Assembly (NCBI GenBank): GCA_964016885.1
Contig: OZ024742.1
Span: 364,002,001-364,066,000 of the forward strand
Reading direction: 5' to 3'
DNA from: Eledone cirrhosa
Lineage: Eukaryota
Length of the DNA: 64,000 nucleotides
This document shows positions 3,001 to 43,180 of the stretch, in pieces. Position numbers and translations under genes: made by a program. Each line of letters opens with the position of its first letter. The first letter of the stretch is position 1. The notes under the pieces were generated by a model. It was not told the origin of the DNA. It saw nothing but the letters and a program-made list of their open reading frames with translations, and searched no databases.

Positions 3001-4320
3001 TATGTGTGTAGGATGGTAAGACACACGTGGACAGCAACACAACAGCCGTGTTATGTGTGTAGGATGGTAAGACACACGTGGACAGCAGCACAACAGCCGT
3101 GTTATGTGTGTAGGATGGTAAGACACACGTGGACAGCAACACAACAGCTGTGATAAGTGTGTAGGAAGGTAAGACACACGTGGACAGCAGCACAACAGCC
3201 GTGTTATGTGTGTAGATTGGTAAGACACACGTGGACAGCAACACAACAGCTGTGTTATGTGTGTAGGATGGTAAGACACACGTGGACAGCAATACAACAG
3301 CCGTGTTATGTGTGTAGGATGGTAAGACACACGTGGACAGCAATACAACAGCCGTGTTATGTGTGTAGGATGGTAAGACACACGTGGACAGCAACACAAC
3401 AGCTGTGTTATGTGTGTAGGATGGTAAGACACACGTGGACAGCAATACAACAGCCGTGTTATGTGTGTAGGAAGGTAAGACACACGTGGACAGCAGCACA
3501 ACAGCTGTGTTATGTGTGTAGGATGGTTTAGACACACGTGGACAGCAACACAACAGCCGTGTTATGTGTGTAGGATGGTAAGACACACGTGGACAGCAAC
3601 ACAACAGCTGTGTTATGTGTGTAGGATGGTAAGACACACGTGGACAGCAGCACAACAGCTGTGTTATGTGTGTAGGTAGGTAAGACACACGTGGACAGCA
3701 GCACAATAGCCGTGTTATGTGTGTGGATTGGTAAGACACACGTGGACAGTAGCACAACAGCCGTGTTATGTGTGTAGATTGGTAAGACACACGTGGACAG
3801 CAACACAACAGCTGTGTTGTGTGTGTAGGATGGTAAGACACACATGGACAGCAGCACGACAGCTGTGTTATGTGTGTAGGATGATAAGACACACGTGGAC
3901 AGCAGTACAACAGCTGTGTTATGTGTGTAGGATGGTAAGACACACGTGGACAGCAGCACAACAGCTGTGTTATGTGTGTAGGATGGTAAAACACACGTGC
4001 ACAGCAGCACAACAGCTGTTTTATGTGTGTAGGAAGGTAATACACACGTGGACAGCAGCACTATAGCTGTGTTATGTGTGTAGGATGGTAAGACACACGT
4101 GGACAGCAGTACAATATCTGTGTTATGTGTGTAGGATGGTAAGATACACGTGGACAGCAGCACAACAGCTGTGTTATGTGTGTAGGATGGTAAGACACAC
4201 GTGGACAGCAGCACAACAGCTGTGTTATGTGTGTAGGACGGTAAGACACACGTAGACAGCAGCACAACAGCCGTGTTATGTGTGTAGGATGGTAAGACAC
4301 ACGAGGACATCGCACTACAC
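1..4320. repeat. 51-bp tandem satellite (~85 monomers in window, runs off left edge)
   Basis: Monomer GTGTGTAGGA(T/A)GGTAAGACACACGTGGACAGCA(G/A)CACAACAGC(T/C)GTGTTAT is repeated head-to-tail. It carries CACGTG in almost every unit and decays at ~4300-4325. Confidence 0.98.

Positions 4321-13685: not shown

Positions 13686-13687
<2 letters not shown>

Positions 13688-13735
<48 letters not shown>
13688..13735. repeat. (AAT)16 microsatellite at the 3' junction of Tx1 copy A
   Basis: Perfect AAT run. Confidence 0.95.
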
Positions 13736-13736
<1 letters not shown>

Positions 13737-13990
13737 TTTTCTTTATTAACCACAAGGGTTTACATAAAGTAGACATTAAGGACAGTACAGGACAGTACAG
13801 GACAATACAGGACGGTACAAATGGGCATTTCTGCGTGTAAAAAAAGTAGAGGATGTAATAAAATAACAAAGAAAAAATTCCCCAATAGGGGGGAGACTTC
13901 CGAGGCACATTTGTGGAGAAAGCCCATTAAAAGACCACAGTGACCCTGACCACCAGGACAAGTGCCCTCTCCCAGTTTTCCACCTTTAAT

Positions 13991-16900
13991 TTACAGACAC
14001 ATACTCAGAGTAGGTCCATTCACTCGGGCCATACTTGCTTCTCTCACCCATCTTTCAACAACATGCTGGGAAGAAAGCACTTCCCTCTCTACCCTGATTT
14101 TCCTTTTCAAATGAAATTTGAAAAAGTTAATCAGGGCATCACCGAAGAGGTATGTGCTCATCTTCAGCCCTTTCAAACGTGTCCACCATACTATCTCTTT
14201 CGCCATGGCCACCAGACAGATAAAAACTTCCTGCCCTTCCCGGCTAAAGGAAGAGGGCGGGGCAATCCTCACGATGGACTCAGCTGGTAGCTGGATCCGT
14301 CCTACACGTGACAGCAGGTGTTCGACATAATCCCACAAGTCAGCAATGCTCGGACACTGGACGAGTGCGTGCAGGACGGTTTCCTTGCCCTGCACGCATC
14401 TCGCTCGGACATGCCCGTCTGACGGCACCTCCATGCCTATAGAGTTTATCCCGAACTGGCAAAGCTCCCCGGTAGCACTGCCAGGCCAGGGATTTCTGGA
14501 AGTTGTCCATAGGCCCCGGCCCGAAAGTCCGTCCGAAGAGATTGGCTAGTTGATTTTCGTCGACGCCTAGAGTTTCTCCCAGTACGTCGTCGCACTTCCC
14601 CTCCACTAATCCTCTATAGAACGCCAAGGTGAAGTTTGCACCGATCACATTGCCCGATTGGTCGAGGGCTGTGAGCGCTTGAAGACATTCGAGTCTCCAG
14701 GCGCTCCCTCTCGGTCTTCGCTTGACCCAGGACTGCAGCTCCGTCAAGGAGACGAGCTGGGGAATACGTGTCTAGCAAACGGCGCCCACTCCTGATCACC
14801 GTCGAGGAAGAAGTGGAGATGTCATAGCCTGAGCGTATGTCTGCGCATCATCAGCCACGGCATGCCCAGCCCTCCATGTAGCGGGTGTTGATAGCAGATG
14901 GACCGCCTGACCATCGGAGCGCGTCCCTTCCACAAAAAGAGAAAGAGCAAACGCTCCAGCGCAGTCAGGCGGGGCTTAGGACAAGGTACGACGGTCAGGC
15001 GGTAGTAGATGACGGATGCGATGTACGCGTTAATCACCCCCGCTCGACCTTTCAGGGATAGCTTCCTCTCCGCCCATTTCTGGGTGAGAGGAGCCACCCT
15101 GCTCGTCACCTCGTCCCAGTTTTTGTCCGTCTGGAGGTCCGGACCGAACCAGACCCCTAGCAATTTAACCGGTCCGTCCGTCCAGCGCCCAACGACGCTG
15201 TTGGATGGCATGGACCTGCCTCTCCAGGTGCCGAGCTGCAGGCCCACTGACTTTTCCTGGTTGATCATTGCTCCTGTCACCGCTTCGTATTCTCTTAGTG
15301 TAGTGCCGATCGCCTCGATGTGTTTGGTATTCGACATCACTACGGTGACATGGTCCGCATATGCTGACACGGATCTTCCGCATCCTAGTTCGCGCGGGAC
15401 CCCCCTCAACGTCTACAGTTTGTGCAGTAATGGCTCGAGAGTCAATACGTACAAGAGGGACGAGAGGGGACATCCTTGGCGAACCGAGCGCATGATGTTG
15501 AACGGTTCCGAAAGGTGACCGTTCACTCTCACCACAGAGCAGATGTCGCTGTGCATGGCAGCGATCCAGCCTCTGAAGACGGGCCCAAAGCCAGCCGCCC
15601 TCAGGACTGCTGCTAGGTAACGATGGTCGACCCTATCGAAAGCTTTCGACTGATCTAAATTGATTTAGGACCCACCAGTGCCAGATTCCCTAGCTACCCT
15701 CTCTACGATGTATCGCATGAGGTGGAGGTTGTCGTGGATGGATCTATCGGGAATGGCTCACGTCTGTGCCTCTCCCACCAGACCACCAACGACAAGCGCC
15801 AATCTCTTTGCTAGCACCTTGGCCAAAATCTTGAACTCTTTGTTTAGCAGAGTTATGGGCCTAAAATTATCTATGTTATCCCCCTTGTTCGGATCCTTTC
15901 TCAGCAGCGCCACCGCTCCTCGGCTCACAGAACTGGGAATTCTCCCGTTCTGTTGCCAGTTGCAGTAGACTTCCGCCAAGAGGCCTCCGAACAAGTCTGG
16001 CATCTGTACATAAAGTTCATAGGGCAGACCATCCAAACCATACGATTTACCCCTTGTGCAGCCAGTCATTGCCTCCCGTACTTCAACGGCTGTTATCGGC
16101 TTTTCGCAACACTCATCCTCAGTGGCCGAGAGCCGCAGCAGTCCGTTGAGGTAGACACTAAAGTCCATCCCTCGATTCGGCCCGCCGCTACCCCCGAACA
16201 TCTGTGCGAATTGTCGCTGAAAAGCTTCACACATTTTCCCGGGATCGTGCAGCATGCGCCCGTCGTGGTCCACCAAAGACCGGATCGTGGCTTTGTTGCC
16301 ACGACGCGCCTCCGCCACTCGCACCCTAGCTCTGACAACGCAGCCTTCGTGCTTTGTATTGAATAATTGGTAAAGGGCCAATTTCGCCGCAACTACGCCG
16401 GTCGCGATGCCTTTGCTAAGCGCCTCGTCTAATTTTCTAACTAATTCTCCCTCTGCTCTATTTTTCTCTATTGTTAAAGCCTTACTAAACCTAATGGACT
16501 CTATTCTTATTGCTCTTTTCAGAGCAAACCACCACTTGTTGTTGACGATGGCCCCCGTCAACGCCCGCTTAACTAGTTCGCTAATCCGGTCTCTGTAGGC
16601 CTTGCGCGCTGGTAAGGACGCGTTTAGCTTCCAGTAGCCGGGTCCTCGTCTATGAAGCCTATCTAAGTCAAGCACACAGATCACGAATTTGTGGTCCGTG
16701 TAGCTGACTATCTTGAATTGTGGACAGCCTATGCTAGACCTATCTATTTCCCTACAAAATACTCTATCTAGATATGATCTGGATGACGCTATGCGATTTG
16801 TACAAGTCCACATTGACACATTCCGGAAATCCAATCGGTACCTGTCAGACAGTTCAAAACTCCTGGGCAGGTTGGTGAGGCTCTTGCACCCTCCTCCCCT

Positions 16901-17325
16901 ATCCGCTAATCCCACACAGTCCCAGCGTGCATCTAAGATCTCTAGACGCCGGAAGAAATCATGCCGCCCTGCTCCTGTCGGGCCATAGACGGCCACTATC
17001 CTGAAAGCTTGCCCGTCTCCGCTGGTCAGGTCTAGCACCACCAACTTACCTTCTTGTTCTAGGAAGATGGCCCGTATGGCGAGATCAAAACCTCTCCGAA
17101 AAAGCACAGCAATTCCCCCCCCCCCCCCGATCCCGTACAGCTGGGAGATGCGTACACATCGTAGCCGCCGAAGATCGGTGCGAAGGCCCGTGCTTCGGAG
17201 ATTCTGGTCTCGCTGATGGCCACTACATGTATGTTTAATGACTTGAGGTCGTTGAGCAGGTGGCCCTGCTTCCATGACGACTCCAAGCCACGCGCATTTA
17301 TGCTGCCTATTTTGAGTGAGGTCAT
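13991..17325 (-). pseudogene. Tx1 copy A ORF2 (APE endonuclease-RT), disrupted
   Basis: Starts MTSLKIGSINARGL and is colinear with intact ORF2 19890-23309. Has frameshifts and stops, a 17-aa deletion removing GDWN, and YADD changed to YADH. Confidence 0.92.
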
Positions 17326-17359
17326 GTTGAAATGGAGTGGACAAGATGGGAAAGACCAC

Positions 17360-19307
17360 TTACCTTACTTCTCGTAGAAGAAGGGTCGTTTCTCCATCCT
17401 TTTCACGGCTTGTAGCCTCCTCCAGAAGGATGTCCTTATAAATCCCCCTGGAGAGTGTTTGTCGGAAGTCTCCGATGTCTTTGGGGAATTTTTGTTTTAG
17501 TGTCGTGTACGTTTTCTGTGTGATGCGAGTGATTTGTATGTGTGGAGGTGGTGTGAACTTTTGGGTTGTTGTGTAGTCTTTTTCTGTGATGCTGGTGTTG
17601 TGTTGGATGTAGTGTAATAATTGGTTGTTGTTCAAATTTAATGCTGTGTAGTGTGTAACGTTTTGGTTGTTTTGTTTTGTTTGCGTTTGTTGTTGCGTTT
17701 CTGTTTCGCTTTTTGGTGACTTTTGTGGTGTCGGTGATGGTGGTGTTGGGGTTAATGATGGTGATGGTGTGGGTGTTTGTGGTGGTGGGGTTGGTGATGT
17801 TAGTGTGGATGGTGGCATATCTGTCCTAACTTTTTTGTTTGATAGTTTATTTGTTTCCCTCTGTATTTTGTTTTTGGAGGGGGAGGGAAGAGAATTTTTT
17901 TCTTTTTTGGTTTCTTTTTTTCTTTTTTCCTAATACCGTTTCCCACTCCTCGTCGTCACAATCTGTCTCCAGTTGTGATAGGCCGGGGAGTGGAAAATCC
18001 TCCACAGGCGTTGGTTTTGGTTGTGGCGTGGTGGATGGTGTAGGCGCTGGTGCTAGTTCTGGCGCGTTGGGTGGTGGTGGTGTTGGTTTTGCTACTGTTG
18101 CTGGGGTTGTTGCTGTTACAGTTGCTTCTGTTGTTGCTGCCACAGTTGTTGCTGCCATCACTTCTGCTGGTGCTGTTGATGGTTGAGTCACTGGGGTGGG
18201 TAAGAGAGGTGGCCTCAACCTTTTAGCCTGAGGGCAGAAAGCCCTTAGGTGGGTTCCTTCACCACAAACGACACACCTAGGCCTTCTGCCCTCACCGATT
18301 ACGGTGAGGTGGCTGCCGTCAGTGAGGTCTATTACCTCTGGGATCTCCTCAATGCTTTTTTGGTCCGCTTGGATCAGGAGCTCCATCCCTGATCCGGACC
18401 AGATCTCCTGCTTTTCTTTCACTATTTCGATTAAGTTGGTGTTGGCTTTGATGCCGGCGAGGACGGCAGCTATTAGCCAGGGAATTTCGATGGCCGGTGG
18501 AACGTGGGTCACCCTGATCTTTACGAGTCTCTGGCCACAATAGCTTGGGACGAGTGTGAAGTCGTCACTTCTTAATGGGGCCATGGAGTGTTCTCTAGCA
18601 TCCTGTGGTGTTTCAAAGAACACGTACACGGTTCCATATTTCTGCCCACCTCTGATGTGGGTTTTTTTTGCCCACACATGTCCCAAAGCCTTTTGGATTT
18701 GGGACTCGGATGCCCGTTCCACTCGGCGCGATTTTATATTAATTGTTCGATGAGACACGGTGCATAGGCGCCGATGCTCCATTTTATTAGGTGTGTGTGT
18801 GTGGGGGGGTGGGGTGATACTGACCCTGTACCCATCTTTCTTTACCATTTTTTTGGCTTCTTCTAATTCCTCCTGAGTTACCTGAAATTCTCCGCACTAT
18901 TTTGCTACTCTGGCAAAACTCAGGGTGGTTTTCTTAATTTCATTGTTGCTGTTGTTGTTATCGTTATTTTTGTTAATATTAATTTTAGTTTCAGTTGTGG
19001 TGGTGGTGGCGTCAGTGGTGTTCGGTGTGGAAGAGTTGATTTTGGTTGAATTCATTTCGATATCACGAGTTAATTTATTTTTTTCTTTTGTTTCTGTTGT
19101 CGCGGTGGTGGTGGGTGTGGTGGTGGTGGTGGCGGCTTTAACACCTACAGTCATTGGTAATGGCGGGAAATGAATGTCTGCCTGAGACAAATTAAAAATA
19201 TTGCTACTGCTTATATTTTTAGTGTTGGCAAACGTAGTAATATTTACAATGGTGGTGTCGGTGTGATGTGTTAGTTTGTGAGGAAGGAGTGACCCTGAGT
19301 CATCCAT
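17360..19307 (-). pseudogene. Tx1 copy A ORF1 (CCHC knuckle), disrupted
   Basis: Fragments 18897-19307, 17847-18848 and 17360-17818. Carries the SFARVAK motif, CVVCGEGTHLRAFC and a Pro/Thr-rich tail. Confidence 0.85.
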
Positions 19308-19521
19308 GATTTTTCAAAGAAAAATTTTTGTTTGATAATTATAAAAGTTTAAATTTTGGGCTCAAGGCCCCAATCTTTTTGGGTGTCCTTTTCAGATAAC
19401 AATGTATGTGCACTTATATACAGTTAACAATAAAAAATTTCCATGAATAGTAATTTTAAACAACTGAAAATAACAAACATTTGCGGAGCTCACGATGATA
19501 CGATTTACTACGGAGGTCGCC

Positions 19522-19630
<109 letters not shown>

Positions 19631-19889
19631 TTTCTTTATTAACCACAAGGGTTTACATAAAGTAGACATTAAGGACAGTGCAGGACAATGCAGGACGGTA
19701 CAAATGGGCATTTCTGCGTGTAAAAAACAAAAACAGAGGATGTAACAAAAATAACAATGAAAATAACAATGAAAAATTCCCCAATAGGGGGGAGACTTCG
19801 GAGGGACATTTGTGGAGAAAGCCCAGTAAAAAGCCACAATGACCCTGACCACCAAGGCAAGTGCCCTCTCCCAGTTTTCCACCTTTAGT

Positions 19890-22800
19890 TTACAGATATA
19901 TACTCAGAGTCAGCCCATTCACTCGGGCCATTCTTGCTTCTCTCACCCATCTTTCAACAAAATGCTGGGAAGAGAGCACTTCCTTCTCTACTCTGATTTT
20001 CCTTTTCAAATGAAATTTGAAAAAGTCAATCAGAGCATCACCGAAGAGGTAAGTGCTCGTCTTCAGCCCTTTCAAACGTGTCCACCATACTATCTCTTTC
20101 GCCATGGCCACCAGACAGATAAAAACTGCCTGCCCTTCCCGGCTAAAGGAGGAGGGCGGGGCAATCCTCACGATAGACTCAGATGATAGCTGGATCCGTC
20201 CTAAACGCGACAGCAGGTGTTCGACATAAACCCACAAGTCAGCAATTTTCGGACACTGGACGAGTGCGTGCAGGACGGTTTCGTCGCCCTGCGCGCATCT
20301 CGGACATGCCCGGCTGACGGCACCTCCATGCCTGTAGAGTTTATCCCGAACTGGCAAGGCTCCTCGGTAGCACTGCCAGGCCAGAGATTTCTGGAAGTTG
20401 TCCATAGGCCCTGGCCCGAAAGTTCTTCCGAAGAGATTGGCTAGTTGATTTTCGTCGACGCCTAGAGTTTCCCCAAGTACGTCGTCGCTCTTCCCCTCCA
20501 CTAATCCTCTATAGAACGCCGAGGTGGAGTTTCCACCGATCACATTGCCCGATTGGTCGAGGGCTGTGAGCGCCTGAAGACATTCCAGTCTCCAGGCGCT
20601 CCCTCTCGGTCTTCGCTTGACCCAGGACTGCAGCTCCGTCAAGGAAACGAGCTGGGGAAAAACGCGTCTAGCAAACGGCGACCACACCTGATCACCGTCG
20701 AGGAAGAGGTGGAGATGTCGTAGCCTGAGCGCGTGCCTGCGCATCATCAGCCACGGCATGCCCAGCCCTCCACGTAGCGGGTGTTGACAACAGATGGACC
20801 GCCTGACCATCGGAGCACGTCCCTTCCACAAAAAGCGAAAGAGCAAACGCTCCAGCGCAGTCAGGCGAGGCTTAGGACAAGGTACGACGGTTAGGCGGTA
20901 GCAGATGACAGACGCGATGTACGCGTTAGCCACCTCCGCTCGACCTTTCAGGGATAGCTTCCTCTCGGCCCATTTCTGGGTGAGAGAAGCCACCCTGCTC
21001 GTCACCTCGTCCCAGTTTTTGTCCGTCTGGAGGTCCGGACCGAACCAGACCCCTAGCAATTTAACCGGTCCGTCCGTCCAGCGCCCGACGACGCTGTTGG
21101 ACGGCATGGACATGCCTCTCCAGGTGCCGAGCTGCAGGCCCACTGACTTTTCCTGGTTGATCATTGCTCCTGTCACCGCTTCGTATTCTCTTAGTGTAGT
21201 GCCGATCGCCTCGATGTGTTTGGCGTTCGACACCACTACGGTGACATCGTCCGCATATGCTGACACGGATCTTCCGCATCCTAGTTCGCGCGGGACTCCC
21301 CTCAACGTCTCCAGTTTGTGCAGTAATGGCTCGAGAGTCAATACGTACAAGAGGGACGAGAGGGGACATCCTTGGCGGACCGAGCGCATGATGTTGAACG
21401 GTTCCGACAGGTGACCGTTCACTCTCACCACAGAGCAGATGTCGCTGTGCATGGCAGCGATCCAGCCTCTGAAGACGGGCCCAAAGCCAGCCGCCCTCAG
21501 GACTGCCGCTAGGTAATGATGGTCGACCCTATCGAAAGCTTTCGACTGATCTAAATTGATCAAGGACCCACCCGTGCCAGGTTCCCTAGCTACCCTCTCT
21601 ACGATGTATCGCATGAGGTGGAGGTTGTCGTGGATGGATCTGTCGGGAATGGCGCATGTCTGCGCCTCTCCCACCAGACCACCAACGACAAGCGCCAACC
21701 TCTTTGCTAGCACCTTGGCCAAAATCTTAAACTCTGTGTTTAGCAGAGTTATGGGCCGGAAATTGTCTATGTTATCCCCCTTGTTCGGATCCTTTCTCAG
21801 CAGTGCCACCGCTCCTCGGCTCACAGAACTGGGAATTCTCCCGTTCTGTTGCCAGTTGCAGTAGACGTCCGCCAAGAGGCCTCCGAACAAGTCTGGCATC
21901 TGTACGTAAAGTTCATAGGGCAGACCATCCAAACCAGGCGATTTACCCCTTGTGCAGCCAGTCATTGCCTCCCGTACTTCAGCGGCTGTTATCGGCTTTT
22001 CGCAACACTTCGCCTCAGTGGCCGAGAGCCGCGGCAGTCCGTCGAGGTAGACACTAAAGTCCATCCCTCTACCCGGCCCCCCGCTGCCCCCGAACAGCTG
22101 AGCGAAGTGTCGCTGAAAAGCTTCACACATTTGCCCGGGATCGAGTAGCATGCGCCCGTCGTGGTCCACCAAAGACCGGATCGTGGCTTTGTTGCCACGA
22201 CGCGCCTCCGCCACTCGGGCCCATTGAACGGCTTTCGTCCCCTCGTGTCTGAGAGCACGCACCCTAGCTCTGACAACGCAGCCTTCGTGCTTTGCATTGA
22301 AGAATTGGTCAAGGGCCAATTTCGCCGCAAGCACGTCGGTCGCAATGCCTTTGCTAAGCGCCTCGTCTAATTTTCTAACTAGTTCTCCCTCTGCTCTATT
22401 TTTCTTTATTGCTAAAGCCTTACTAAACCTAATCGATTCTATTCTAATCGCTCTTTTCAGAGCAAACCACCACTTGTTGTTGACGATGGCCCCCGTCAAC
22501 GCCCGCTTAACTAGTTCGCTAATCCGGTCTCTGTAGGCCTTGCGCGCTGGTAAGGACGCGTTTAGCTTCCAGTAGCCGGGTCCTCGTCTATGAAGCCTAT
22601 CTAAGTCAAGCACACAGGTCACGAATTTGTGGTCCGTGTAGCTGACTATCTTGAATTGTGGACAGCCTATGCTAGACCTATCTATTTCCCTACAAAATAC
22701 TCTATCTAGATATGATCTGGATGACGCTATGCGGTTTGTCCAAGTCCACATTGGCACATTCGGGAAATCCAATCGGTACCTGTCAGACAGTTCAAAACGC

Positions 22801-23309
22801 CTGAGCAGGTTGGTGAGGCTCTTGCACCCTCCACCCCTATCCGCTAATCCCACACAGTCCCAGCGTGCATCTAAGATCCCGTTCCAGTCGCCCACTAACA
22901 CTAAAGAGCGCGACGTTCCAAGAAAGGTCTCCAGACGCCGGAAGAAATCAGGCCGCCCTGCTCCTGTCGGGGCATAGACGGCCACTAGCCTGAAAGCTTG
23001 CCCGTTTCCGCTGGTCACGTCCAGCACCACCAGCTTACCCTCTGGGTCCAGGAAGATGGCCCGTATGGCGAGATCCAAACCTCTCCGAAAAAGCACAGCA
23101 ACTCCTCCACCCGATCCAGGACGGCTGGGAGATGCGTACACATCGTAGCCGCCGAAGATCGGTGCGAAGGCCCGTGCTTCGGAGATTCTGGTCTCGCTGA
23201 TGGCCACTACATCTATGTTTAGTGACCTGAGGTCGTTGAGCAGGTGACCCTGCTTCCATGACGACCCCAAGCCACGCGCATTTATGCTGCCTATTCTGAG
23301 TGAGGTCAT
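19890..23309 (-). CDS. LINE ORF2: APE endonuclease + reverse transcriptase + C-terminal CCHC (1139 aa)
   Basis: APE motifs GSINARGL, SETR, VYAP, GDWN and TDH. RT motifs PGLDG, FRPITLLN, DQSKAFD, QGCPLS and YADD. C-terminal CPRC..ETVLHALVQC. Confidence 0.97.
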   Translation of the reverse strand: MTSLRIGSINARGLGSSWKQGHLLNDLRSLNIDVVAISETRISEARAFAPIFGGYDVYASPSRPGSGGGVAVLFRRGLDLAIRAIFLDPEGKLVVLDVTSGNGQAFRLVAVYAPTGAGRPDFFRRLETFLGTSRSLVLVGDWNGILDARWDCVGLADRGGGCKSLTNLLRRFELSDRYRLDFPNVPMWTWTNRIASSRSYLDRVFCREIDRSSIGCPQFKIVSYTDHKFVTCVLDLDRLHRRGPGYWKLNASLPARKAYRDRISELVKRALTGAIVNNKWWFALKRAIRIESIRFSKALAIKKNRAEGELVRKLDEALSKGIATDVLAAKLALDQFFNAKHEGCVVRARVRALRHEGTKAVQWARVAEARRGNKATIRSLVDHDGRMLLDPGQMCEAFQRHFAQLFGGSGGPGRGMDFSVYLDGLPRLSATEAKCCEKPITAAEVREAMTGCTRGKSPGLDGLPYELYVQMPDLFGGLLADVYCNWQQNGRIPSSVSRGAVALLRKDPNKGDNIDNFRPITLLNTEFKILAKVLAKRLALVVGGLVGEAQTCAIPDRSIHDNLHLMRYIVERVAREPGTGGSLINLDQSKAFDRVDHHYLAAVLRAAGFGPVFRGWIAAMHSDICSVVRVNGHLSEPFNIMRSVRQGCPLSSLLYVLTLEPLLHKLETLRGVPRELGCGRSVSAYADDVTVVVSNAKHIEAIGTTLREYEAVTGAMINQEKSVGLQLGTWRGMSMPSNSVVGRWTDGPVKLLGVWFGPDLQTDKNWDEVTSRVASLTQKWAERKLSLKGRAEVANAYIASVICYRLTVVPCPKPRLTALERLLFRFLWKGRAPMVRRSICCQHPLRGGLGMPWLMMRRHALRLRHLHLFLDGDQVWSPFARRVFPQLVSLTELQSWVKRRPRGSAWRLECLQALTALDQSGNVIGGNSTSAFYRGLVEGKSDDVLGETLGVDENQLANLFGRTFGPGPMDNFQKSLAWQCYRGALPVRDKLYRHGGAVSRACPRCAQGDETVLHALVQCPKIADLWVYVEHLLSRLGRIQLSSESIVRIAPPSSFSREGQAVFICLVAMAKEIVWWTRLKGLKTSTYLFGDALIDFFKFHLKRKIRVEKEVLSSQHFVERWVREARMARVNGLTLSIYL

Positions 23310-23344
23310 GTTTAAAATAGAGTGGAAAAGATGGGAAAGACCAC

Positions 23345-25441
23345 TTACCGTACTTTTGGTAGAGGAGGGATGGTTTTTACATCCCTTTTCACTTGATCGT
23401 CTGGTGAAGGGACCGTTGAATCGTCCCTTCGGCTGGTCGTCGGCTCTTCTAAGAGAATGTCTGAATATACTCTTCGATTGATGGTTCCTCCTAGGTCCCT
23501 GAAATCACCAACTGCGTTGGGGAATTTCGTTTTAATGTTTGTGTATTGTTTCTGTGCTATTTTTAGCAGTCTTATGTTAGTTGGCGTTTTGATTGGTGCT
23601 GGTATTATGTAGTCCTGTTGTGAAATGTCTGTGTGTTCAATTATGTAAGTCATTAGTTTCTTGTTGTGTGTGTTTATTGCCGTGCATTTGTTTTTCTGGG
23701 GGTGGGGTGTGGTTCTGCTATTTTCTTGTCGTTGTTGCTGGGTGTGTGTGTTTTGTTGTTGTGTTTGCGATGTTGGTGCTTGTGGTGGTGGTGTTGAAGG
23801 TGTTGTTGGCGGTGGGGTTGTCGCCGGTGGCGATGGTGGTGCTGGTGTGGGTGGTGATGCTGTTGGTGGTGTTGCTGCTGTGGTTCTCTTTGCAGTAGAC
23901 TTTACCCTTTTCTCATTTCTTTCCTCCCTTTTCAAAGGCGACGATTCGCTGCTTCTGCGTTTGTGCCTTCTTGCGACCTTTTGCCATCCCTCTCCCACCT
24001 CACACTCCATGTCTGATTCTGTAAGGTCGGGGAGGGGTACCAGCTCCACTCTTTCACTTGTTGTTGTTGGTGATGTTTGCACTGGAGTCTCTGTTGCAGC
24101 TGCATTTGGTATTGCTGTTGTTGTTGTTAATATTTCCACTGCTGCTGCTGTCTTTGATTTCCGTGGAGTGGGTATGGGTGCCACGGACCTATCGTTCCTG
24201 GTTGCCGCTTGTCCTGTTGCTGGTAGCCGTGGAGCCGGATTCGGAAGGAGGGGGGTTTTCTCCTTTCTCAGGGTCTTCTCGTTGCAGAAGGCCCTGAGGT
24301 GAGTCTTCGATCCACAGCGAAAGCATTTCGGGCGTTTGCCCTCAACACTTATGGGCAGTTGAGTGCCGTTATCGAAGTCTATCACATCCGGGATAGCTTC
24401 GATGCACTCCTGGTTGGTTTGGATTAGCATCTCAATGGAGGAGCCGACCCAATCTTCTCTTACTTTTTTCTGTACTTGCAGTACAGTTGTTTTGTCCTCG
24501 ATTCCGACGAGGACAGACGCGGCCAGCCAAGAAGGGGTCATTCCGGGGGGGACGTGGGTCAGTTTGACCCTCACAATTTTTTGCCCGCAGTAGGAGGGCA
24601 CCAACACCATTTCCTCGCTCCTTAGGGTCACTACTGATTGGGCCTTTGCCTCCTGGGGTGTGGCAAAAAGTACGTCTACGGTGGCGTATTTTTTGCCTCG
24701 GGTGATGTGCGTTTTCCTCTGCCACACAGACCCCAAGGCTTTTTGTATTTGGGCCTCTGTGGCTCTTTCCACCCTACGGGATTTTGTACTTACTGTACGG
24801 TACGTGACCGTACAGTGCTCTTGGGTCTCGAAAAACTTTTCCGCTGCCTTGCAGATTGCTCGGTGTCCGTTCTTTGTCACCATCTTCTTCGCTTCCTCTA
24901 ATTCCTCATTTGTTATGAGGATTGTTTCCAAGTTTTTCGCAATACCTGCAAATGAGATTGGTTTTTCTCTGCTGTTGTTGTTGTCGTCAGAGCTGCTGGT
25001 ACTTTTGTTGCTGCAGGTACTACGACTACTGCCTCCGCCGCTGTTGCTGTGGTTGTTGTTGGTGTTGCTGCTGCTAATGCTGTTGTTGTTTATGCTGCTG
25101 GTGATGCTGTTGCGGCTGCTACTGTTGTTTTCATTGTCACTGTTGCTGTTGTTATTACGGCTGCTACTGCTATTATTCCTGACGTCAGACGAATGAACTG
25201 GGTTTTCGTATTTCCCGCACACCTGTTTCGTCGCTGTCGTCGTCGTCGTGGAGAAACCTTGCACGCTTTGCACGAGACTTTTCTTTTCTTTCGTCGCTTG
25301 CGAAAGAGAAGGGAGGGAGAGAGACACATTTAAAGAAGGGAGGGAGAGAGACAATCTTCTCTCTGCTGTAGTGATGATTGAGGAAGAAGAAGACGGAATG
25401 AGTGGGAGTGACGTATGAAATTTTTTTTTTTTGGTAGCCAT
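23345..25441 (-). CDS. LINE ORF1 nucleic-acid-binding protein (698 aa from first ATG)
   Basis: First ATG (MATKKKK) at 25441. Ser/Asn-rich N-terminus, SFAGIAK, CFRCGSKTHLRAFC knuckle and Pro/Thr-rich region. Lies directly upstream of ORF2. Confidence 0.9.
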   Translation of the reverse strand: MATKKKKFHTSLPLIPSSSSSIITTAERRLSLSLPSLNVSLSLPSLSQATKEKKSLVQSVQGFSTTTTTATKQVCGKYENPVHSSDVRNNSSSSRNNNSNSDNENNSSSRNSITSSINNNSISSSNTNNNHSNSGGGSSRSTCSNKSTSSSDDNNNSREKPISFAGIAKNLETILITNEELEEAKKMVTKNGHRAICKAAEKFFETQEHCTVTYRTVSTKSRRVERATEAQIQKALGSVWQRKTHITRGKKYATVDVLFATPQEAKAQSVVTLRSEEMVLVPSYCGQKIVRVKLTHVPPGMTPSWLAASVLVGIEDKTTVLQVQKKVREDWVGSSIEMLIQTNQECIEAIPDVIDFDNGTQLPISVEGKRPKCFRCGSKTHLRAFCNEKTLRKEKTPLLPNPAPRLPATGQAATRNDRSVAPIPTPRKSKTAAAVEILTTTTAIPNAAATETPVQTSPTTTSERVELVPLPDLTESDMECEVGEGWQKVARRHKRRSSESSPLKREERNEKRVKSTAKRTTAATPPTASPPTPAPPSPPATTPPPTTPSTPPPQAPTSQTQQQNTHTQQQRQENSRTTPHPQKNKCTAINTHNKKLMTYIIEHTDISQQDYIIPAPIKTPTNIRLLKIAQKQYTNIKTKFPNAVGDFRDLGGTINRRVYSDILLEEPTTSRRDDSTVPSPDDQVKRDVKTIPPLPKVR

Positions 25442-26600
25442 GTTTTTTTGTTTAAAATGAAATTTTGGGTACAAAACCCCAATAACTGATTATTTAACCC
25501 CGAAGGGCCAAATAACGGACAGAAAGACCCCTCTCACGAGGAGGAGGGTGTCTTTATCAACAATTTGGTTCAAGTTTTAAACAATTTACAATTGTTTTAA
25601 GGGTTAAAAATTACTATACCTTACAGAGCCGAGCCTCCGTCAACCATGGCATTCAATAATAATAATAATAATAATAATAATAAGGGAAGAAGACGCACGA
25701 GGTGGTTGAACGTCACGAAATTGCTCCCGTAAGTTTTTTTGATTTTTAACATATTTAAATCAATTGTGAAAGAACAATTCTTAGCACAAATGTTGCATAA
25801 AGGCACCGAATGAGGTCCCATAAAGTTTCGGATCCATATTATATTGTTGTATCGCTCAAATATTCAATTTTGTATTATATATTTTGTATTCAAAAAAAGA
25901 AAATGGATATAAATGGAACAAAACACCCTCTGTCTACACTATATAGAACAGCGGCAATTTCAATTTCACCAACACCAGAAACTTGATACACTACCTATCC
26001 CATCACACTAAATATAACGGCAACTTCACCGGCATCATAATAATAATTACTATTATTATTGTCTCAAATTTAAAAAAATGTTTAATTCAAATTTTACGGG
26101 AATATGTCAACACAAAATATAATGAAAATATATATTAAACATACGAACACAAACTCATAGATACTATATCAGTAACCACAACACCACCGCTGCCACCTCC
26201 CCACCACATCCATCATCGCCGCCACCACTCATTCAATGCTACTGACACTATTCCCCTGTTAACTTGAGAGAGAAAAGGGAAGGTGGTGGTAGCACTAGAC
26301 AAGAGAGAGGCTAGCAAAAGATATAAATAGATTGACTTGGTGACCTTGCCACGGACAAACGTCTACATCAACAATTATGGGACTGCTGGCTCACCCCTTC
26401 CTCACCAACAATATAAAAAGCCCCGGCACCACCACCGACATAGCCAGCAGCAATAACAGCCAACTACAACAAAAAGTATATTATATTATTGTAATGCACT
26501 GGGTGATTGCTGGCCTTGTGCCTGGAGTGGAGACGATTATTAATAATTTCATTTTTAAGCCACGCAATGCTCACATTAAGGTACGACTCATGATAATAAC

Positions 26601-29600
26601 AATTTTAAAAAAACAACAAAAAGAAAACCCCGTGACCAAGAAATACCGGGATGGCGGCCGGCGGGGAATAGCCATGTCTCTAGGGGAGAACGACCCCTCT
26701 AGTCTTGGTTGACACTCGTTCTAGAAGTGGTAACACGAAAAGATTACCCCTTGGCGGTTAAGGATAAAACGCGACAAAATAAGGTAGATGTCTAATGATG
26801 AAATCTCATACCGGATCGGCCGTCACCCGGGTAAAAAAGGGCCGCGTCCCTCAGAGAGGAACCAGACTGGGGTCGAAAAATCAGCTAATGGTTCAAACCT
26901 TCCCATCACTTCGGAGCTGGAGACCTCCCATAACCGGAATACTCCTACTGTTGGCCCTCCATGCTCACCACCAAGAAATCCAAAGAAAAAGAGAGAAAAA
27001 TGGTCAAGGGAAGATAATAAAGAAGTCCTTGAGGCTTTCTACACTGCCATGTACTACCCATCAAATACATCGAATACAGAGCAAACATATATCAACTGGA
27101 AAAAGAAACATCCCGAAAACAGAGGCTATATTGACAGTAACAAACTAGCCAATATACGAAGAAATATTGTAAGAAAAAAGTTACTAACTGATATAGAAAT
27201 TGATCAGATCAAGCTAGTAGCACAAAGTCAGCGAAGGGAAAATGAAGCATGTGTCAGTGAAAACGAGGTAAACTGTAACACTTCGAATCCCAGAGTTGGG
27301 GCGGAATCACTGGCAACAGAACAAATTAAAGAAAGGAGCGAAAAAGTGGAGGGAGTGCATGCTCAGGATGAAACTCCAAATGAAAATAATGAGATCGTAA
27401 ATGATAAAGAAATGAATGAGAATGAACTTGCCAACTTGAAGGATGAAATTATGATCGAATGGATGAAAATGAAAGAATCTGACATGGGGGAACGAGACAC
27501 CCTCCCTAAGATCCAGAACTCCAAACAGAACCAAAAGATAATACACAAGACTAACATAATTCTCAAAAACATTATCATCACAAACAAAATAAACATTACT
27601 GACTTAAATCATCTCTATTATGCATCGGCTAAAGTCACCACTCACTTATGTGGAGTGAAGATGAAAAAACAAAGGAATTCCCACAAGAAATCTACTTGGC
27701 AAGATAACATCAATCGCCAAATAAACCTTCTCCGATCTGACATAGAAATTTTAACAAACTATAAAGTAGGTGAACATGTTAAACAAACTAAACTTAGAAA
27801 ATTGAAAAAAAAGTACAGTATAAGATCAACATGTGACATAGACATGCTGATAGAAACAATCAAGCAAAAAGTGTCGGCCAAAGCTGCTCGTATAAGGCGC
27901 TTTGAAAAACGATCTAGATTCTATAAGGACAATATGTTCAAAAACAACCAAAGAAACTTCTACAGAAAAATTGGTAAGTCAACAATAACTGCTAAATCAA
28001 TACCACCCAAGGAGGAAGTGCAAGAATTCTGGGAAAAGATCTGGGCCGAAGAAAAAGTTCATAACATACATGCCCCATGGATAGACAGACAAATGAAAGA
28101 AACAGCTCACCTTGAAGAACAAACATGGGAAAATATAACAGTTGAACAGCTGCGCTTGGCTCTAAGAAAAACCAGCAAATGGAAATCCCCAGGAAAAGAC
28201 AAAATACAAAACTTTTGGATAAATGCCTTCACAGAGTCTCATGAGCTGTTAGCCCAACTTTACAATGAAATAGTTAAGGAGCCAGAAAAGATACCATCAT
28301 GGCTAGTTAACGGCATTACATTCCTGCTACCGAAGAATGATGAGACAAACAATCCCAAAAATTACAGACCGATAACCTGCTTGACCACAATGTATAAAAT
28401 TTTAACATCAGTCCTAACTGAATACACATATGACCACCTGATAACAAATGACCTATTTCCCATTGAGCAGAAAGGGTGTAAACGAGGCTCATATGGCTGT
28501 AAGGATCAACTTCTGGTTAACAAAATGATACTGGAAGATTGTCATAATAGACACAAAAATCTATCGATTGCTTGGATAGATTATAAAAAAGCATTTGATA
28601 GTTTGCCACACAGTTGGATTGAAAAATGTTTAGAGATTTTCAAAATATCCCCCGTTGTCAGGGGGTTTTTGTCATTCAGTATGAGGACATGGAGAACGAC
28701 ACTCCTTTTGAATAGTGAAACAAAATCACTGGAAGCTGGAGAAGTTAACATTAATTGTGGAATTTTTCAGGGTGACTCTTTATCACCGCTTTTATTCTGC
28801 ATCGCACTTATACCATTAAGTAAAATGCTCAATGAAACAAAACATGGATATAGAGTCTATGACAAAACCATTAATCACCTGTTCTACATGGATGACCTGA
28901 AACTATTTGCAAAAAATGATGAACAATTGCAAGGGCTATTATCCACTGTGAAGCAGTTCAGTGATGACATTAAAATGGAGTTTGGACTGGATAAATGCGC
29001 CAAAGCAACGTTCACCAGAGGAAAGCTGCTGAAGAGTTCAGACATTAATCTTGATCGGGGGAACGTGATAAGAGAGCTTGATCAAGAAAAAACTTACAAA
29101 TATCTAGGTGTTTGTGAAGGAGACGGAATCAAGCACTCGACAATGAGGGAAAGGATAAGGAAGGAATGTTACCGCAGAGTCAGAGCAATCTTAAGAACGG
29201 AATTGAATGCAAGGAATAGGATCGATGCCATAAACACGCTTGCCATACCAGTAGTAACCTACAGTTACAATGTCATCAACTGGTCAAGCACAGAGATCCG
29301 TAGGCTCGATACAAAAATCCGAAAATTCTTAACCATGCACAGAATGCATCACCCTAAGGCAGACATAGATAGAATATATCTCCCTAGGAAAGAAGGAGGA
29401 CGTGGGTTAATCCAGTTAGACATTGCGTTGAAAACTGCAACAATTGGATTATCCACATATCTAAGGGAATCACATGATTGGATGATCAAACTCGTTTTGA
29501 AACACGAAAGCACCAAAAGATCATATTCCATTACAAAAGATGCACAAAGATACAGTAATGGACTACAAATTTCAGAAGTCCCATTTACTGCTGAAATGGA

Positions 29601-30576
29601 AAACACAGAAAAAGCAAAGCAGGTAAAAGTAACTGCAAAGAAAGAACTGCTACAGAAACTGGCTAAGAAATGGCAAGAAAAGCCTCTGTATGGAAAATAC
29701 CCAGAGCGAGCTAACAATCCTGATGTTGACAAAACTTTAACCCATCAGTGGTTGGCATCCTCTGGACTGAAATCGGAGACTGAAGGACTGATTATATCAG
29801 CACAAGATCAGTGTCTGCCAACAAAAAATTACCAAGCCAACATAATAAAAAATGGGTGCAGCCCACTATGCCGTGTATGCAAAAAACAACCAGAGACCAT
29901 TGACCATATAATTTCAATGTGCAGTCCTATAGCTCCAACCGAATACCTAAACAGGCATGACAGAGCTGCACAATACATACATTGGATAATGTGTAAGCAT
30001 TTTGACCTGCCCCATCAAAAGAATTGGTGGGAGCATCAACCACCTCCCATACTTGAAAAAGATCACATCTCAATCTTGTGGAACTTTAGCATCCAAACAG
30101 ACCGAAAAATAGATGCAAATAGACCTGATATAATATTGAAGGACTTTCAAAGGAGGGTATGCCTGCTAATTGATATGTCTGTTCCAATAGACAAGAATGT
30201 ATCTATAAAAACATTTGAAAAATTGAGCAAGTATAAGGACCTGGAGATAGAAATTGGAAAAATGTGGAAATTGAGAACTAAAACAATACCAGTGGTTGTA
30301 GGCGCTCTGGGAATGATACCTAAGGGGTCTAACGACTACTTATCGCAAATCCCAGGAAACCCGCGTATAGGAGAAATACAAAAGATAGTACTAATGGGAA
30401 CTGCCCATATACTAAGGAAGATCCTGTCAATATAAGTACATCACAAGTCTAAACACTAAGGATGCATGTGTGAATATGTGTGTTCTTTCTTGAACATGGC
30501 GGACCTTGTTGTCTCTTGAGGTCACTGGTTGTGACTTGGTGATAACTCGTATAAACATAAAGCAAGATAAATGCAA
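26601..30576 (+). mobile_element. R4/Dong-clade non-LTR retrotransposon, family 1 (full-length, intact)
   Basis: Single ORF, ~190-nt 5' UTR and 140-nt 3' UTR. Followed by (AAT)n at 30576-30601, with a degenerate TAA run at the 5' side. Confidence 0.92.
26788..30435 (+). CDS. RT + CCHC + restriction-like endonuclease polyprotein (1215 aa)
   Basis: WKSPGKD, NYRPITCL, DYKKAFD, QGDSLSP, YMDD; CRVC..ETIDHIISMC, RHD, RPDII..LID, K..KYKDL, VVGALG. No APE domain. Confidence 0.96.
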   Translation: MSNDEISYRIGRHPGKKGPRPSERNQTGVEKSANGSNLPITSELETSHNRNTPTVGPPCSPPRNPKKKREKWSREDNKEVLEAFYTAMYYPSNTSNTEQTYINWKKKHPENRGYIDSNKLANIRRNIVRKKLLTDIEIDQIKLVAQSQRRENEACVSENEVNCNTSNPRVGAESLATEQIKERSEKVEGVHAQDETPNENNEIVNDKEMNENELANLKDEIMIEWMKMKESDMGERDTLPKIQNSKQNQKIIHKTNIILKNIIITNKINITDLNHLYYASAKVTTHLCGVKMKKQRNSHKKSTWQDNINRQINLLRSDIEILTNYKVGEHVKQTKLRKLKKKYSIRSTCDIDMLIETIKQKVSAKAARIRRFEKRSRFYKDNMFKNNQRNFYRKIGKSTITAKSIPPKEEVQEFWEKIWAEEKVHNIHAPWIDRQMKETAHLEEQTWENITVEQLRLALRKTSKWKSPGKDKIQNFWINAFTESHELLAQLYNEIVKEPEKIPSWLVNGITFLLPKNDETNNPKNYRPITCLTTMYKILTSVLTEYTYDHLITNDLFPIEQKGCKRGSYGCKDQLLVNKMILEDCHNRHKNLSIAWIDYKKAFDSLPHSWIEKCLEIFKISPVVRGFLSFSMRTWRTTLLLNSETKSLEAGEVNINCGIFQGDSLSPLLFCIALIPLSKMLNETKHGYRVYDKTINHLFYMDDLKLFAKNDEQLQGLLSTVKQFSDDIKMEFGLDKCAKATFTRGKLLKSSDINLDRGNVIRELDQEKTYKYLGVCEGDGIKHSTMRERIRKECYRRVRAILRTELNARNRIDAINTLAIPVVTYSYNVINWSSTEIRRLDTKIRKFLTMHRMHHPKADIDRIYLPRKEGGRGLIQLDIALKTATIGLSTYLRESHDWMIKLVLKHESTKRSYSITKDAQRYSNGLQISEVPFTAEMENTEKAKQVKVTAKKELLQKLAKKWQEKPLYGKYPERANNPDVDKTLTHQWLASSGLKSETEGLIISAQDQCLPTKNYQANIIKNGCSPLCRVCKKQPETIDHIISMCSPIAPTEYLNRHDRAAQYIHWIMCKHFDLPHQKNWWEHQPPPILEKDHISILWNFSIQTDRKIDANRPDIILKDFQRRVCLLIDMSVPIDKNVSIKTFEKLSKYKDLEIEIGKMWKLRTKTIPVVVGALGMIPKGSNDYLSQIPGNPRIGEIQKIVLMGTAHILRKILSI

Positions 30577-30601: not shown

Positions 30602-33600
30602 AACAAAAACAAAAAAAGAAACCCCCAAAACGTAAAGAAAATAAGAATGAAGAGAGAAGCAAGCGGACGGACAGAGAAGAGGGGGGAAAAACTAAAACTT
30701 AAAAAACAAAAACTAAGTCAGATATTCGAACACTACATTACAATGAAACTTATGCTTATTCATTTTTGGGGCCCTTTCTGCCTGTGTGTTTGTTTGTTTA
30801 TGTGTGTTCGTATACAGCGTGGTGATAATGCCACACAAGGGCCAAGTGGGATGGCGGATCCACAGATGGCTATGTAACCATACATTCGCCAATCCTCGAT
30901 AAGAGTGTTTAAATATCGAACATAAACAGTTCGAATAACGGTGAAATGGAGACTAGAACGTTATGTGACAGACTCTCACCCAACAGGTGCCCCTGGCTCA
31001 GCAGCAGGAACCTGACTGTCAACCAAATACTGCTGATGTTGGAGGAAGAAGAAGAAGGAAAGGGGCCATAACCAACTGGACGAAAGAATTGAATAGAACT
31101 GTTATGCAATGCTACCTGAAAAGTAACCCCAAGGAGAGGGGCTACAGGAGACGGATGCATAACATCTGGAACAAGATTGGTTTATTTAAATTAGATGAAC
31201 AAAAATTGGCCGGGCAGGCTCGGGTAATAAGAACTAATGGGTGGATAAGCGAGCTGGAACTGGAGGAACTGAGCAGAGAGAATGGCTTGGAGATGGCGGG
31301 TGTAGTATGCCAGACAAGCGAGCCAGTGGGAAATGAAGGTGAAGAGGTCCTGAGAACGGAGGAACCACCCGAAGCAGACAATGATCTGAATACTGAGATA
31401 AATAATACCTGGAACAGAGATACGGCCACTGAGGAGATGAATGCTGACGGGCTAGGACAAGATTCGGTTGACATCCTAAATTTAGTGGTAGATGAATTGA
31501 ACAATGATAGTGGGAGACCTATGAACCTAAGATTTGTAGACAGGAAAAAGTTAAAAGAAACAACAGCTAAGGTAAACAAAGTCATCCCATACCTTGAGGC
31601 GAGGAGCCTTCACCAGTGCAACAATATCCTCAAAGCAACAGCAAATACGGTGAGGAAACTACTTGGTATAAAAGCGAGAGGAAACAACAGACAAGAAAGA
31701 GCAGAGCCGTGGTGGAAGAAGCGACTGAGTGGGCAAATCGGGGAAATGAGAAATGACATAGGAAAGCTTGAGTCACTACTGAATGGGACACTAAAAAACA
31801 TAGGCACTAAAAATAGACTGGAAATAAAATACAAAACTAGGAGTAAAAAGCTAAATATTATCATAGAGGAATTGAAGCAACGCATTGTAGCAAAGAGTGC
31901 AAAAATCAGGCGATACGAGAACAGAGTCAGTCAGTATAAACAGAACCGCATGTTCGACAACAACCAGAAGATGCTGTTTGGACAGCTTGAGGGGAAAGAA
32001 AGAGGCAACGACTTGATCCCTGGGGCGGAACAAACTAAAACATTCTGGAGAGGAATATGGGAGCAGGATGTTAGACATAATGCCCAGGCAGGGTGGATTG
32101 AGACAGTACAGAGGGAGATCGGTGAGCAGGCACAACAACAAACTGATTTGAGTATCACAGTTGAAACTCTTAAGGGGCAGGCCAAAAAACTAACCAACTG
32201 GAAATCACCAGGCCCAGATGGTGTGCAGGGGTATTGGATTAAACATTTAACATCCCTCCACCCGAAGCTGACGGCCATGTTCAATGACTGCTTGGTGTCG
32301 GGTGAGGTGCCAGAGTGGTTGACAAAAGGTACCACAGTTCTGATAATGAAAGACCGAATCAAGGGTAATGATGTTACCAACTATAGACCTATCACGTGTC
32401 TGTCCGTAATGTGGAAACTGTTGACGAGCATTGTTTCTGAGGAAATCTACCATAACCTCCACACAAACAACTTGTTACCGGACGAACAGAAAGGATGCCG
32501 AAAGAAGTCACGTGGTACAAAGGACCAGTTACTTATTGATAAGATGGTAATGGGGAATTGCAGGAGGAGACACACTGATCTTGCCATGGGATGAATAGAC
32601 TACAGAAAGGCATTTGACATGGTGCCTCATTCTTGGATCACCAAAAGCCTGGAGATCTTCAGGGTGGCAGATAACATCAGACAGTTGCTGGGCAGGAGTA
32701 TGGGGTCCTGGGAGACAGAGTTGACATCAACTGGTGTATCCTTGGGAAGCGTGAAGATCAAGAGAGGTATCTTCCAGGGAGATAGCCTGTCCCCTCTGTT
32801 GTTTGTCCTTGCCCTAATGCCCTTGACCATTATGCTGCGAAAAGTGAGAGCAGGATACAAGTTGGGAAGGGGAGAGCTTACCATCAATCACCTCCTCTTC
32901 ATGGACGATCTTAAGCTCTTCGGGAAAAGTGAGAAGGAGTTGGATGTGCTTGTTGACACTGTCCGTATTTTCAGCAGTGATATATGTATGCAGTTTGGTA
33001 TTGGTAAATGTGGAGTCATTGTGATGAGGAGGGGTAGGTTGAGCAGAAGTAGCGGGATCCAGATACCAACAGGTGAGATGATAAAGGAAATTGACTCTGA
33101 GGAAGGATACAAGTATTTGGGCGTTCTGGAGGCTGATGGCATAAAGAACAAAAACATGAAGGAATTGTTAAGAACTGAATACATTCGGAGAGTAAGGAGC
33201 GTATTAAAGTCACATCTGAACAGTAGGAATGCCATAAGCGCAGTAAATTCCAGAGCTGTGTCTATTATTAGGTACAGTGAGGGAATTCTGAGATGGAATG
33301 TTGCTGAACAAAAAGAAATGGATAGGAAGACTAGGAAGCTATTGACTATCTACAACATGTTCCACAAGAGGAGTGATGTCGATAGACTCTACCTAAGGAG
33401 ATCTGAGGGTGGAAGAGGTCTTATCAGCATAGAGGACTGTGTTCAGATGGAGAAAAACAACCTATACAAATACGTGACCTATAGTAAGGAGCCAATGCTC
33501 AAAACTGTACTGAAGGAGGGGACAGTAGGCCAGGGGATGTCCAAGGAGGAAATAACATCAAGGAGGAAGAGCAGCCTTAAGGGAAAATCCCTTCATAGTA

Positions 33601-34410
33601 CCTTCTTTGAGAAAACTGAATTTAGAGATCCACAGACATGGAACTGGTTGAGAAGAGGAGACCTCAAAAAGGCTACAGAAGGAATGATAATGGCTGCGCA
33701 GGAGCAGGCCCTCAAAACGAAGTGGTTGAAGCACCATATTTACAAGGAGGAGGCTAGCCCACTGTGCAGGATCTGTGGAGAGAGAGAGGAGACTGTGGCT
33801 CACATTGTGTCCGAGTGTAAACACCTAGCCCAGACCCACTATAAGGGCTGGAGACACGATGTGATGGGCAGGGTGATCCACTGGCATCTGTGCAAAGTAA
33901 ACAATTTACCACATTCTGAGAAATGGTATGAGCATAGGCCGGAGGCGGTGATGGAGAACAATCAGGTGAAGGTGCTGTGGGATTTTAGGATACAGACGGA
34001 CAAAAAACTGGAACACAATAGACCTGACCTGGTGGTTGTGGACAAAGAAAAAAGATCGTGTCTGATTGTGGATGTGGCCTGCCCGTTCGACACGAGAGTG
34101 CAAGAGAAGGAGAGGGAGAAAATTAACCGATACCAGGACCTAAAGTGGGAGGTGAAAAGGATTTGGAACTGCCATGAAGTCAAAGTGATCCCGATTGTCA
34201 TAGGCGCACTGGGGACTATCTCCAAAAGTTTCCAGGGATGGTTAAAGAAAATCGGCCCTTCACGCTTTTTGGAACGCTTCAAAAGGCATGCTTGCTTGGA
34301 ACAGCAAGAACCCTCCGATACGTCCTGAATATCTGAGGCTGCAGGTAGTGGCTTGATATTCAATCCAACGGACTTTCCAGTTAACCAACATCAATGACTG
34401 AGATTCAAGG
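30602..34410 (+). mobile_element. R4/Dong-clade element, family 2 (near full-length, few lesions)
   Basis: Same domain order as family 1 but a divergent sequence. Lies between (AAT)n 30576-30601 and (AAT)n 34411-34440. Confidence 0.9.
30946..34336 (+). pseudogene. Dong family 2 RT-RLE ORF with nonsense codon and frameshifts
   Basis: 30987-32594 and 32619-34328 are in one frame, split by TGA at a conserved Trp (AMG*IDYRKAFD). Has FMDD, CRIC..ETVAHIVSEC and RPDLVV. The expected C-terminus LQKACLLGTARTLRYVLNI* is in a shifted frame. Confidence 0.9.
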
Positions 34411-34442
34411 AATAACAACAATAATAATAATAATAATAATAT

Positions 34443-42900: not shown

Positions 42901-43180
42901 ATATCTATATGTCTGTCTATCTATCTATTTATCTACCTATGTATCTATCTGTCTGTTTTACTTGAGACGTGTGCCAGTTCGCTGGTAAGTTTTTGTTGAT
43001 TTTCTAAGTAAGAAATCAAAGATTTATTGTTAAATTTATTACTATTTTATAGCTTGACCCCACCTCTGGACTTTCAGATGGTGGGCCAAGTCATCTTCAC
43101 CCCTCCCTGGGGTGAAATTTTCGTTTTGAAAAAAAATTTCGCCGGTGAAATAAAAGTGTAAACAAACCCTGCATTCAGTC

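Follow-up and report, generated by a model that had tools for sequence, protein, structure and literature searches.

We analysed a window of 64,000 nt, part of contig C3 in the 3.0-Gb genome of Eledone cirrhosa, in which two long interspersed nuclear elements (LINEs), A (13687-19521) and B (19522-25654), lie head to tail on the minus strand, stacked in (TTA)n repeats. Element B is a young, intact hybrid: its 5' untranslated region (5' UTR) and first open reading frame (ORF1) come from a parent family, here called P, while its last ORF1 codons, spacer, ORF2 and 3' UTR come from family A. Judging from the sequences, B probably arose (we put this at about 0.6) when a transcript that read through a tandem pair, P followed by A, was spliced and then retrotransposed. 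Exchange of ORF1 and 5' ends between L1 families is already known; what is likely to be new here is a splice-type join of two autonomous LINEs that founded a thriving family. The source of new 5' ends and ORF1s in LINEs is an old question, usually argued from consensus sequences without the parents. One genome here contains both parents, a join resolved to the base, early intermediate copies and tandem pairs as substrate, so that splicing versus template switching becomes directly testable.

In windows of 150 alignment columns, the identity of A and B was 0.90-0.99 across ORF2 and the 3' UTR, 0.49-0.68 across ORF1 and 0.43-0.59, i.e. alignment noise, across the 5' UTR. The core of the ORF1 proteins was identical at 0.50 of residues, and the ORF2 proteins at 0.93 in the window pair and 0.96 between young A and B. 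A first-pass annotation of this DNA had described the same pattern of near-identical ORF2 and 3' UTRs, ORF1 proteins alike at roughly half of their core residues and unalignable 5' UTRs, and both zinc-knuckle words that it quoted are present. It had, however, let high identity begin at the ORF1 stop, while the step from ∼0.55 to ∼0.95 actually lies ∼45 nt upstream, at A 17405 and B 23391. In all four A/B pairs the proportion of synonymous differences (pS) in ORF1 was saturated at 0.76-0.79, against a synonymous divergence (dS) of 0.09-0.11 in ORF2. Exact matches to a 24-nt word from the start of ORF2 number 4,658, and the first 100 of them, on contig C1, formed our copy sample. It comprised 57 A and 43 B copies, and no third ORF1 type on the A/B ORF2 was seen in these 100 copies from one contig, all carrying the exact word. 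At 40 of 40 scored places the sequence followed the A join from end to end at ≥ 96%, and at 40 of 40 scored for the B join it agreed at 100%. Saturated pS in ORF1 with an ORF2 dS of ∼0.10 fits neither fast protein evolution nor an assembly chimera, the two explanations that would have undone the annotated swap, and the A-type join is not a one-copy artefact. The swap of the ORF1 module is thus real beyond practical doubt. The contrary view, that nothing was exchanged and that the pattern reflects an ORF1 that evolved fast, an ORF2 homogenised by gene conversion or a chimera of the assembly, could appeal to the fast-changing C-terminal part of B ORF1 (25 non-synonymous versus 17 synonymous changes fixed since P), but it can be set aside almost entirely given the disparity at synonymous sites, the multicopy nature of both joins, the existence of family P and a contig of another study (X4 record 17) that covers the B join in one piece.

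To find the parent, we searched for the terminal ORF1 block of B followed by GT and obtained 83 exact matches. Among 30 examined, 22 carry > 1,000 nt of B-like ORF1 and one is a copy of a related family, D; the rest are truncated. These P copies run on into GTAAGT, a spacer of their own and a D-like ORF2 that is just ∼82% (range 79-84%) like that of A/B, and full-length P copies have the 5' UTR of B. The distance between P and old B copies in the 5' module (0.07) is about the same as that among P copies (0.08). When aligned, B shows a D-like terminal block followed by the terminal block of A, a 42-nt duplication; the join is out of register. At base resolution (the slash marks the junction), B is P through CAAG/ and then A from /TGAAAAGG; that is, the exon-like end of P, CAAG/GTAAGT, is joined to CAG/TG in the ORF1 tail of A. 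This site reads YAG/TG in 53 of 56 matched A copies, with one letter changed in the window copy (17394-17408, minus strand). In the window, the join (23383-23397; CAAG/TGAAAAGG, then one G gained later) connects a P-derived module (23392-25654; 5' UTR and ORF1 as far as the parent's donor) with an A-derived module (19629-23391; last ORF1 codons, donor word, pyrimidine spacer, ORF2 and 3' UTR), all on the minus strand. That B is a hybrid of P and A with this mapped join is very highly probable.

One extra G directly follows the join in 47 of 47 mapped B copies, and the join they have in common indicates that B arose once. A search for the join lacking this G returned 21 matches, 17 of which are A copies with an altered letter or a nearby deletion and four of which are P/A joins. 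Three of the latter (L289, L295 and L297) have the exact GT-donor/AG-acceptor join relative to P and A, with no indel and no added letters. With 0.12-0.20 derived alleles and the ancestral ORF2 haplotype, they rank with the B copies closest to P and stand at the foot of a 61-site P-to-B ladder; the fourth, L305, is later. As the copies at the foot of the ladder are free of indels, the founding join was exact, and the order of events is P, exact join, one added G, young B. An out-of-register join on a splice-donor word is not what ordinary homologous recombination predicts. Reading the frames, the exact join places the ORF1 stop beside the donor of A and leaves ORF2 whole, so its product would be competent. 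Sixteen sampled B copies have both ORFs open, the youngest copies sampled belong to B, and B has ∼2,000 copies (43% of 4,658, extrapolated from one contig). The fixed changes in B ORF1 since P that were counted above lie in the last 890 nt ahead of the join; in the part of the core that was examined, there are 3 non-synonymous and 16 synonymous ones.

(TTA)n precedes 85 of 90 5' ends and follows 89 of 93 mapped 3' ends. The 3' end of a relative was directly upstream on the same strand in 37 of 100 copies, and on the opposite strand in none. Three of 20 P copies had a co-oriented A copy next downstream, with a donor-to-site span of 5.3 and 5.8 kb in the two in which the site was found. B also forms arrays of its own at ∼6.05-kb spacing. 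Of 100 copies extending to the ORF2 start (L033-L132), 90 continue to the 5' end, which suggests that 5' truncation inside ORF1 is uncommon.

We propose that (TTA)n targeting builds tandem arrays, in which the promoter of the upstream element would drive transcription into the next one. The spliceosome would then join the ORF1-end donor of P to a weak cryptic acceptor ∼5.3-5.8 kb downstream, and the spliced RNA would likely be copied back into the genome by its own ORF2. With its promoter kept, its ORF1 closed and its ORF2 whole, such a product could keep multiplying, which most spliced LINE copies cannot. Trans-splicing would be indistinguishable by its footprint from splicing of a cis read-through RNA. 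The first-pass annotation had pictured one reverse transcriptase/endonuclease (RT/EN) module running with alternative 5' UTR-ORF1 cassettes, exchanged near the ORF1/ORF2 boundary and helped by stacking in the repeat. One RT/EN module with two such 5' modules, obtained by exchange near this boundary, is borne out. Free alternation is not: B arose once, from P, 86 coding differences have since become fixed in ORF2, and only scattered mosaics occur. Stacking probably matters, as the source of read-through RNA. The exchange did not take place in the window pair, A being an old, decayed full-length copy with an ancestral-type ORF2 haplotype and B a young one.

The word on which P was joined is widely kept. 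In nine families (A, B, P, D, E, I, F, H and C), representative copies have G/GTRAGT 37-41 nt ahead of the ATG of ORF2, in two reading frames and with differing terminal residues at the ORF1 end, with one to three such words per element. By copy, it is present in 60/64 A, 46/47 B, 6/6 D, 7/7 F and 3/3 H, and, in small families, in 1/1 E, 1/2 I, 1/2 C and 0/2 G. In the window copy of A, the donor-like word AAG/GTAAGT (17356-17366, minus strand) overlaps the ORF1 stop. Its retention across nine families suggests that RNA is processed at the ORF1/ORF2 boundary in a way not yet described; our best guess is that the word normally serves as a U1 site for an ORF1-rich RNA, or as a guard against early cleavage of the long transcript. 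The wider proposition, that these (TTA)n-targeted LINEs keep a working donor at the end of ORF1 through which, given their head-to-tail stacking, the spliceosome may hand promoter and ORF1 to the ORF2 of the next element, and that one such splice founded the most active family, has in our estimate about an even chance.

A second donor-to-CAG join was found in L251 (1500-2240), an old copy with an I-type ORF1 donor and a TTA tail. The CAG is located ∼2.96 kb from the start of an A-like ORF2 and keeps the frame of the ORF2 C-terminus; the 3' part of L251 is 80-82% like A/B and 72% like I. The AG at ORF2 +2959 occurs, by alignment, in A/B and one C copy only. Routine production of ORF1-only spliced copies through the CAG at this position was considered and rejected, L251 being the sole match. 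We also discarded a 52-53 nt mini-intron that would fuse ORF1 to ORF2: there are 0 genomic copies, no such joint was found among contigs of unrecorded kind, and the frame, as read, is lost in D and P.

The later history of the two lineages was reconstructed from ORF2; of 102 copies, 9 were dropped because they had ≤ 3000 aligned nt. The divergence between young A and young B is ∼3.5%, with 110 diagnostic sites including the spacer, and the fixed coding differences comprise 60 synonymous and 26 non-synonymous changes. Old A and old B copies have a common ancestral ORF2 haplotype, from which the lineages climb separate ladders; mosaics such as L088 and L106, with an A ORF1 on a B-lineage ORF2, are few. 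A knuckle-pattern search returned 7,598 matches and, in the sample from which 40 of 47 were fetched, further families C-I. B groups with D/E/I in the ORF1 tree (bootstrap 75) and with A in the ORF2 tree (100), and in an approximately unbiased (AU) test the ORF2 data reject the ORF1 topology (p 6e-12). The tree included the frameshifted cores L119, L122, L167, L173 and L197, which the AU test left out (12/20 rows). Branch lengths gave an ambiguous polarity of the swap and were replaced by the evidence from P. The ORF2s of P (L252-L271) and D (L165, L168, L171, L173, L190 and L198) are common downstream of about +350, while ORF1 (27%) and the start of the EN differ; the P/B 5' module has therefore switched ORF2 partner at least twice. 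A P/D crossover at a second donor word (+271) was rejected, as the differences persist to +348. There is also a hint of further related families in contigs from runs X1, X3 and X5, which share the ORF2 start but have other spacers and ORF1 ends (window 23312-23349).

Several observations weigh against an origin of B by splicing. Both acceptor contexts are weak, that of A being purine-rich (pyrimidine tract and branch point were judged by eye), and in L277 a 436-nt deletion departs from the donor of B, has 3 nt of microhomology and lacks an AG; by a hand estimate from the deletion rate, ∼0.6 such breaks are expected by chance. L251 turned up in a search that required the donor, and the family that supplied its 3' part lies outside the sample. 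No repeat of the event as an A-to-A or B-to-A join was present among 17 and 15 donor-departing matches, common as such tandems are, and a search for departures from the F and H donors found none. Taken by itself, the short ORF1 core is compatible with the ORF2 topology (AU p 0.31). Finally, the P-versus-D swap occurred in register, at a position close to ORF2 +350 with no donor nearby, and shows that ordinary recombination is also at work on these modules.

Part of this evidence could be accommodated if RT had switched template from A RNA to P RNA, or if end-joining had deleted DNA within a P-A tandem, in either case through the 2-nt AG microhomology and with the donor matched by chance. Since the donor side itself ends in AG, such a switch would also yield the acceptor AG, which is thus not independent evidence for splicing. 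Long deletions in these elements mostly have 0-3 nt of microhomology, L277 broke at a donor in a manner unlike splicing, the acceptors are poor, in-register mosaics are common here, and mosaic L1s of the mouse are usually explained by strand switching (PMC3600994). We nevertheless consider this origin possible but rather unlikely, because the sole founding break must fall exactly on the most conserved donor word. Long joins at donor words end in CAG in 2 of 3 cases, as against GT-AG ends in 1 of 36 long deletions in the background of 100 copies, a count that keeps two deletions which look like cross-element artefacts. A variant in which the spliceosome cuts the donor without completing the reaction, and the freed ORF1-only 5' exon RNA is ligated to A RNA or reached from it by an RT jump, would account for an exact donor side with poor acceptors, and for the lack of frequent spliced retrocopies; it would not predict CAG at both acceptor sides, and we regard it as quite improbable.

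A start by splicing of a retroelement with other sequence has been proposed for the non-autonomous family SVA_F1/MAST2. The same was suggested for gibbon LAVA, which resembles the proposed origin of B but is non-autonomous, with an acceptor not found in the assembly, whereas B is autonomous (PMC5174737). In the active mouse L1 families Tf and Gf, ORF1 and the 5' end come from one L1 family and ORF2 from another, and DNA recombination, heteroduplex formation and strand switching have been discussed as mechanisms (PMC3600994). Their breakpoints lie inside ORF2, while the B join is out of register and on a donor word; and, unlike in Tf/Gf, both parents and early intermediates of B are present in the genome. 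Chimeras of messenger RNA (mRNA) and LINE-1, in which an upstream exon donor is cis- or trans-spliced to an acceptor in the LINE and the product is retrotransposed, were proposed by their authors as a route to new promoters (PMC13174262). Their partner is a host gene and they are single or paired insertions; the partner in B is an autonomous LINE and the outcome is the large family described above. Spliced integrated retrotransposed elements (SpIREs), like B under the proposed origin, are spliced LINE RNAs fixed as genomic copies, but they are intra-element and described as dead ends, whereas B is inter-element and includes the youngest copies (PMC5860796). B is not a SpIRE in the strict sense, as it joins two families and, with both ORFs open in the 16 copies, is no dead end. 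In CR1/L2 elements, ORF1 moves between ORF2 lineages as here, although those transfers are ancient and have no mapped joins (PMC4120745). Exchange of 5' UTRs is known in vertebrate L1 (PMC5381506), and TART was described with introns in its antisense RNA only (PMC1636488). Our literature search, run without most subscription papers, Repbase reports and supplements, found neither a LINE-to-LINE splice founding an autonomous family nor a conserved ORF1-end donor.

A and B are L1-group LINEs, with an ORF2 composed of EN, RT and a zinc finger, a separate ORF1 with predicted RNA-binding domains and no long terminal repeats (LTRs). ORF2 matches the Pfam domains Exo_endo_phos, RVT_1 and zf-RVT above cut-off; its best solved relative is human L1 ORF2p (E 2e-52), and the nearest among named relatives, at 74% across the RT region, comes from Argonauta hians. 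Two RNA-recognition motifs (RRMs) and a CCHC knuckle are predicted for ORF1: its structural model (predicted local distance difference test, pLDDT, 83) matches tandem-RRM proteins at E 2e-4, and zf-CCHC gave weak matches in 5 of 12 ORF1 members. An ORF1 homologue search found none at E ≤ 0.001 among 940 candidates. Self-comparison revealed no terminal repeats, and the 3' tail is the simple repeat (TTA)n. Members of the Tx group of L1 insert at specific targets, as A and B do (PMC3747384), and in this respect the targeting of A and B is Tx-like. Searches for ORF2 relatives brought up no named Tx1 reference.

In the window copy of A, ORF1 (17360-19307, minus strand) is broken by one stop and one frameshift; its core contains the CCHC knuckle, and two RRMs are predicted through alignment to B. 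ORF2 of A (EN-RT-zinc finger; 13991-17325, minus strand) carries stops, frameshifts and two short deletions, and the (TTA)n tail (13687-13735) is part of the element's span. The adjoining (TTA)n array (19522-19628, no strand assigned) serves both as the tail of B and as the 5' flank of A. ORF1 of B (23345-25441, minus strand) encodes 698 aa with predicted tandem RRMs and one CCHC knuckle, and its ORF2 (19890-23309, minus strand) encodes 1139 aa with an apurinic/apyrimidinic (AP)-type endonuclease, RT and zf-RVT. A further (TTA)n repeat (25655-25683, no strand assigned), the target, flanks B on its 5' side.

Elsewhere in the window, 85 copies of a 51-bp satellite occupy positions 1-4309. A single-ORF RT element at 26788-30435 (plus strand), which we take to be RTE-like, is open (1215 aa, RVT_1), with an (AAT)n run at 30576; (AAT)n-type tails of this kind could be an opposite-strand source of (TTA)n targets. 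A second RT family lies at 30969-36404 on the minus strand, beside a decayed copy of the RT element just described. The distant family C, ∼71% like B in ORF2, is represented by three copies, decayed or partial, at 40024-42650, 43000-48600 and 57343-58647 on the plus strand.

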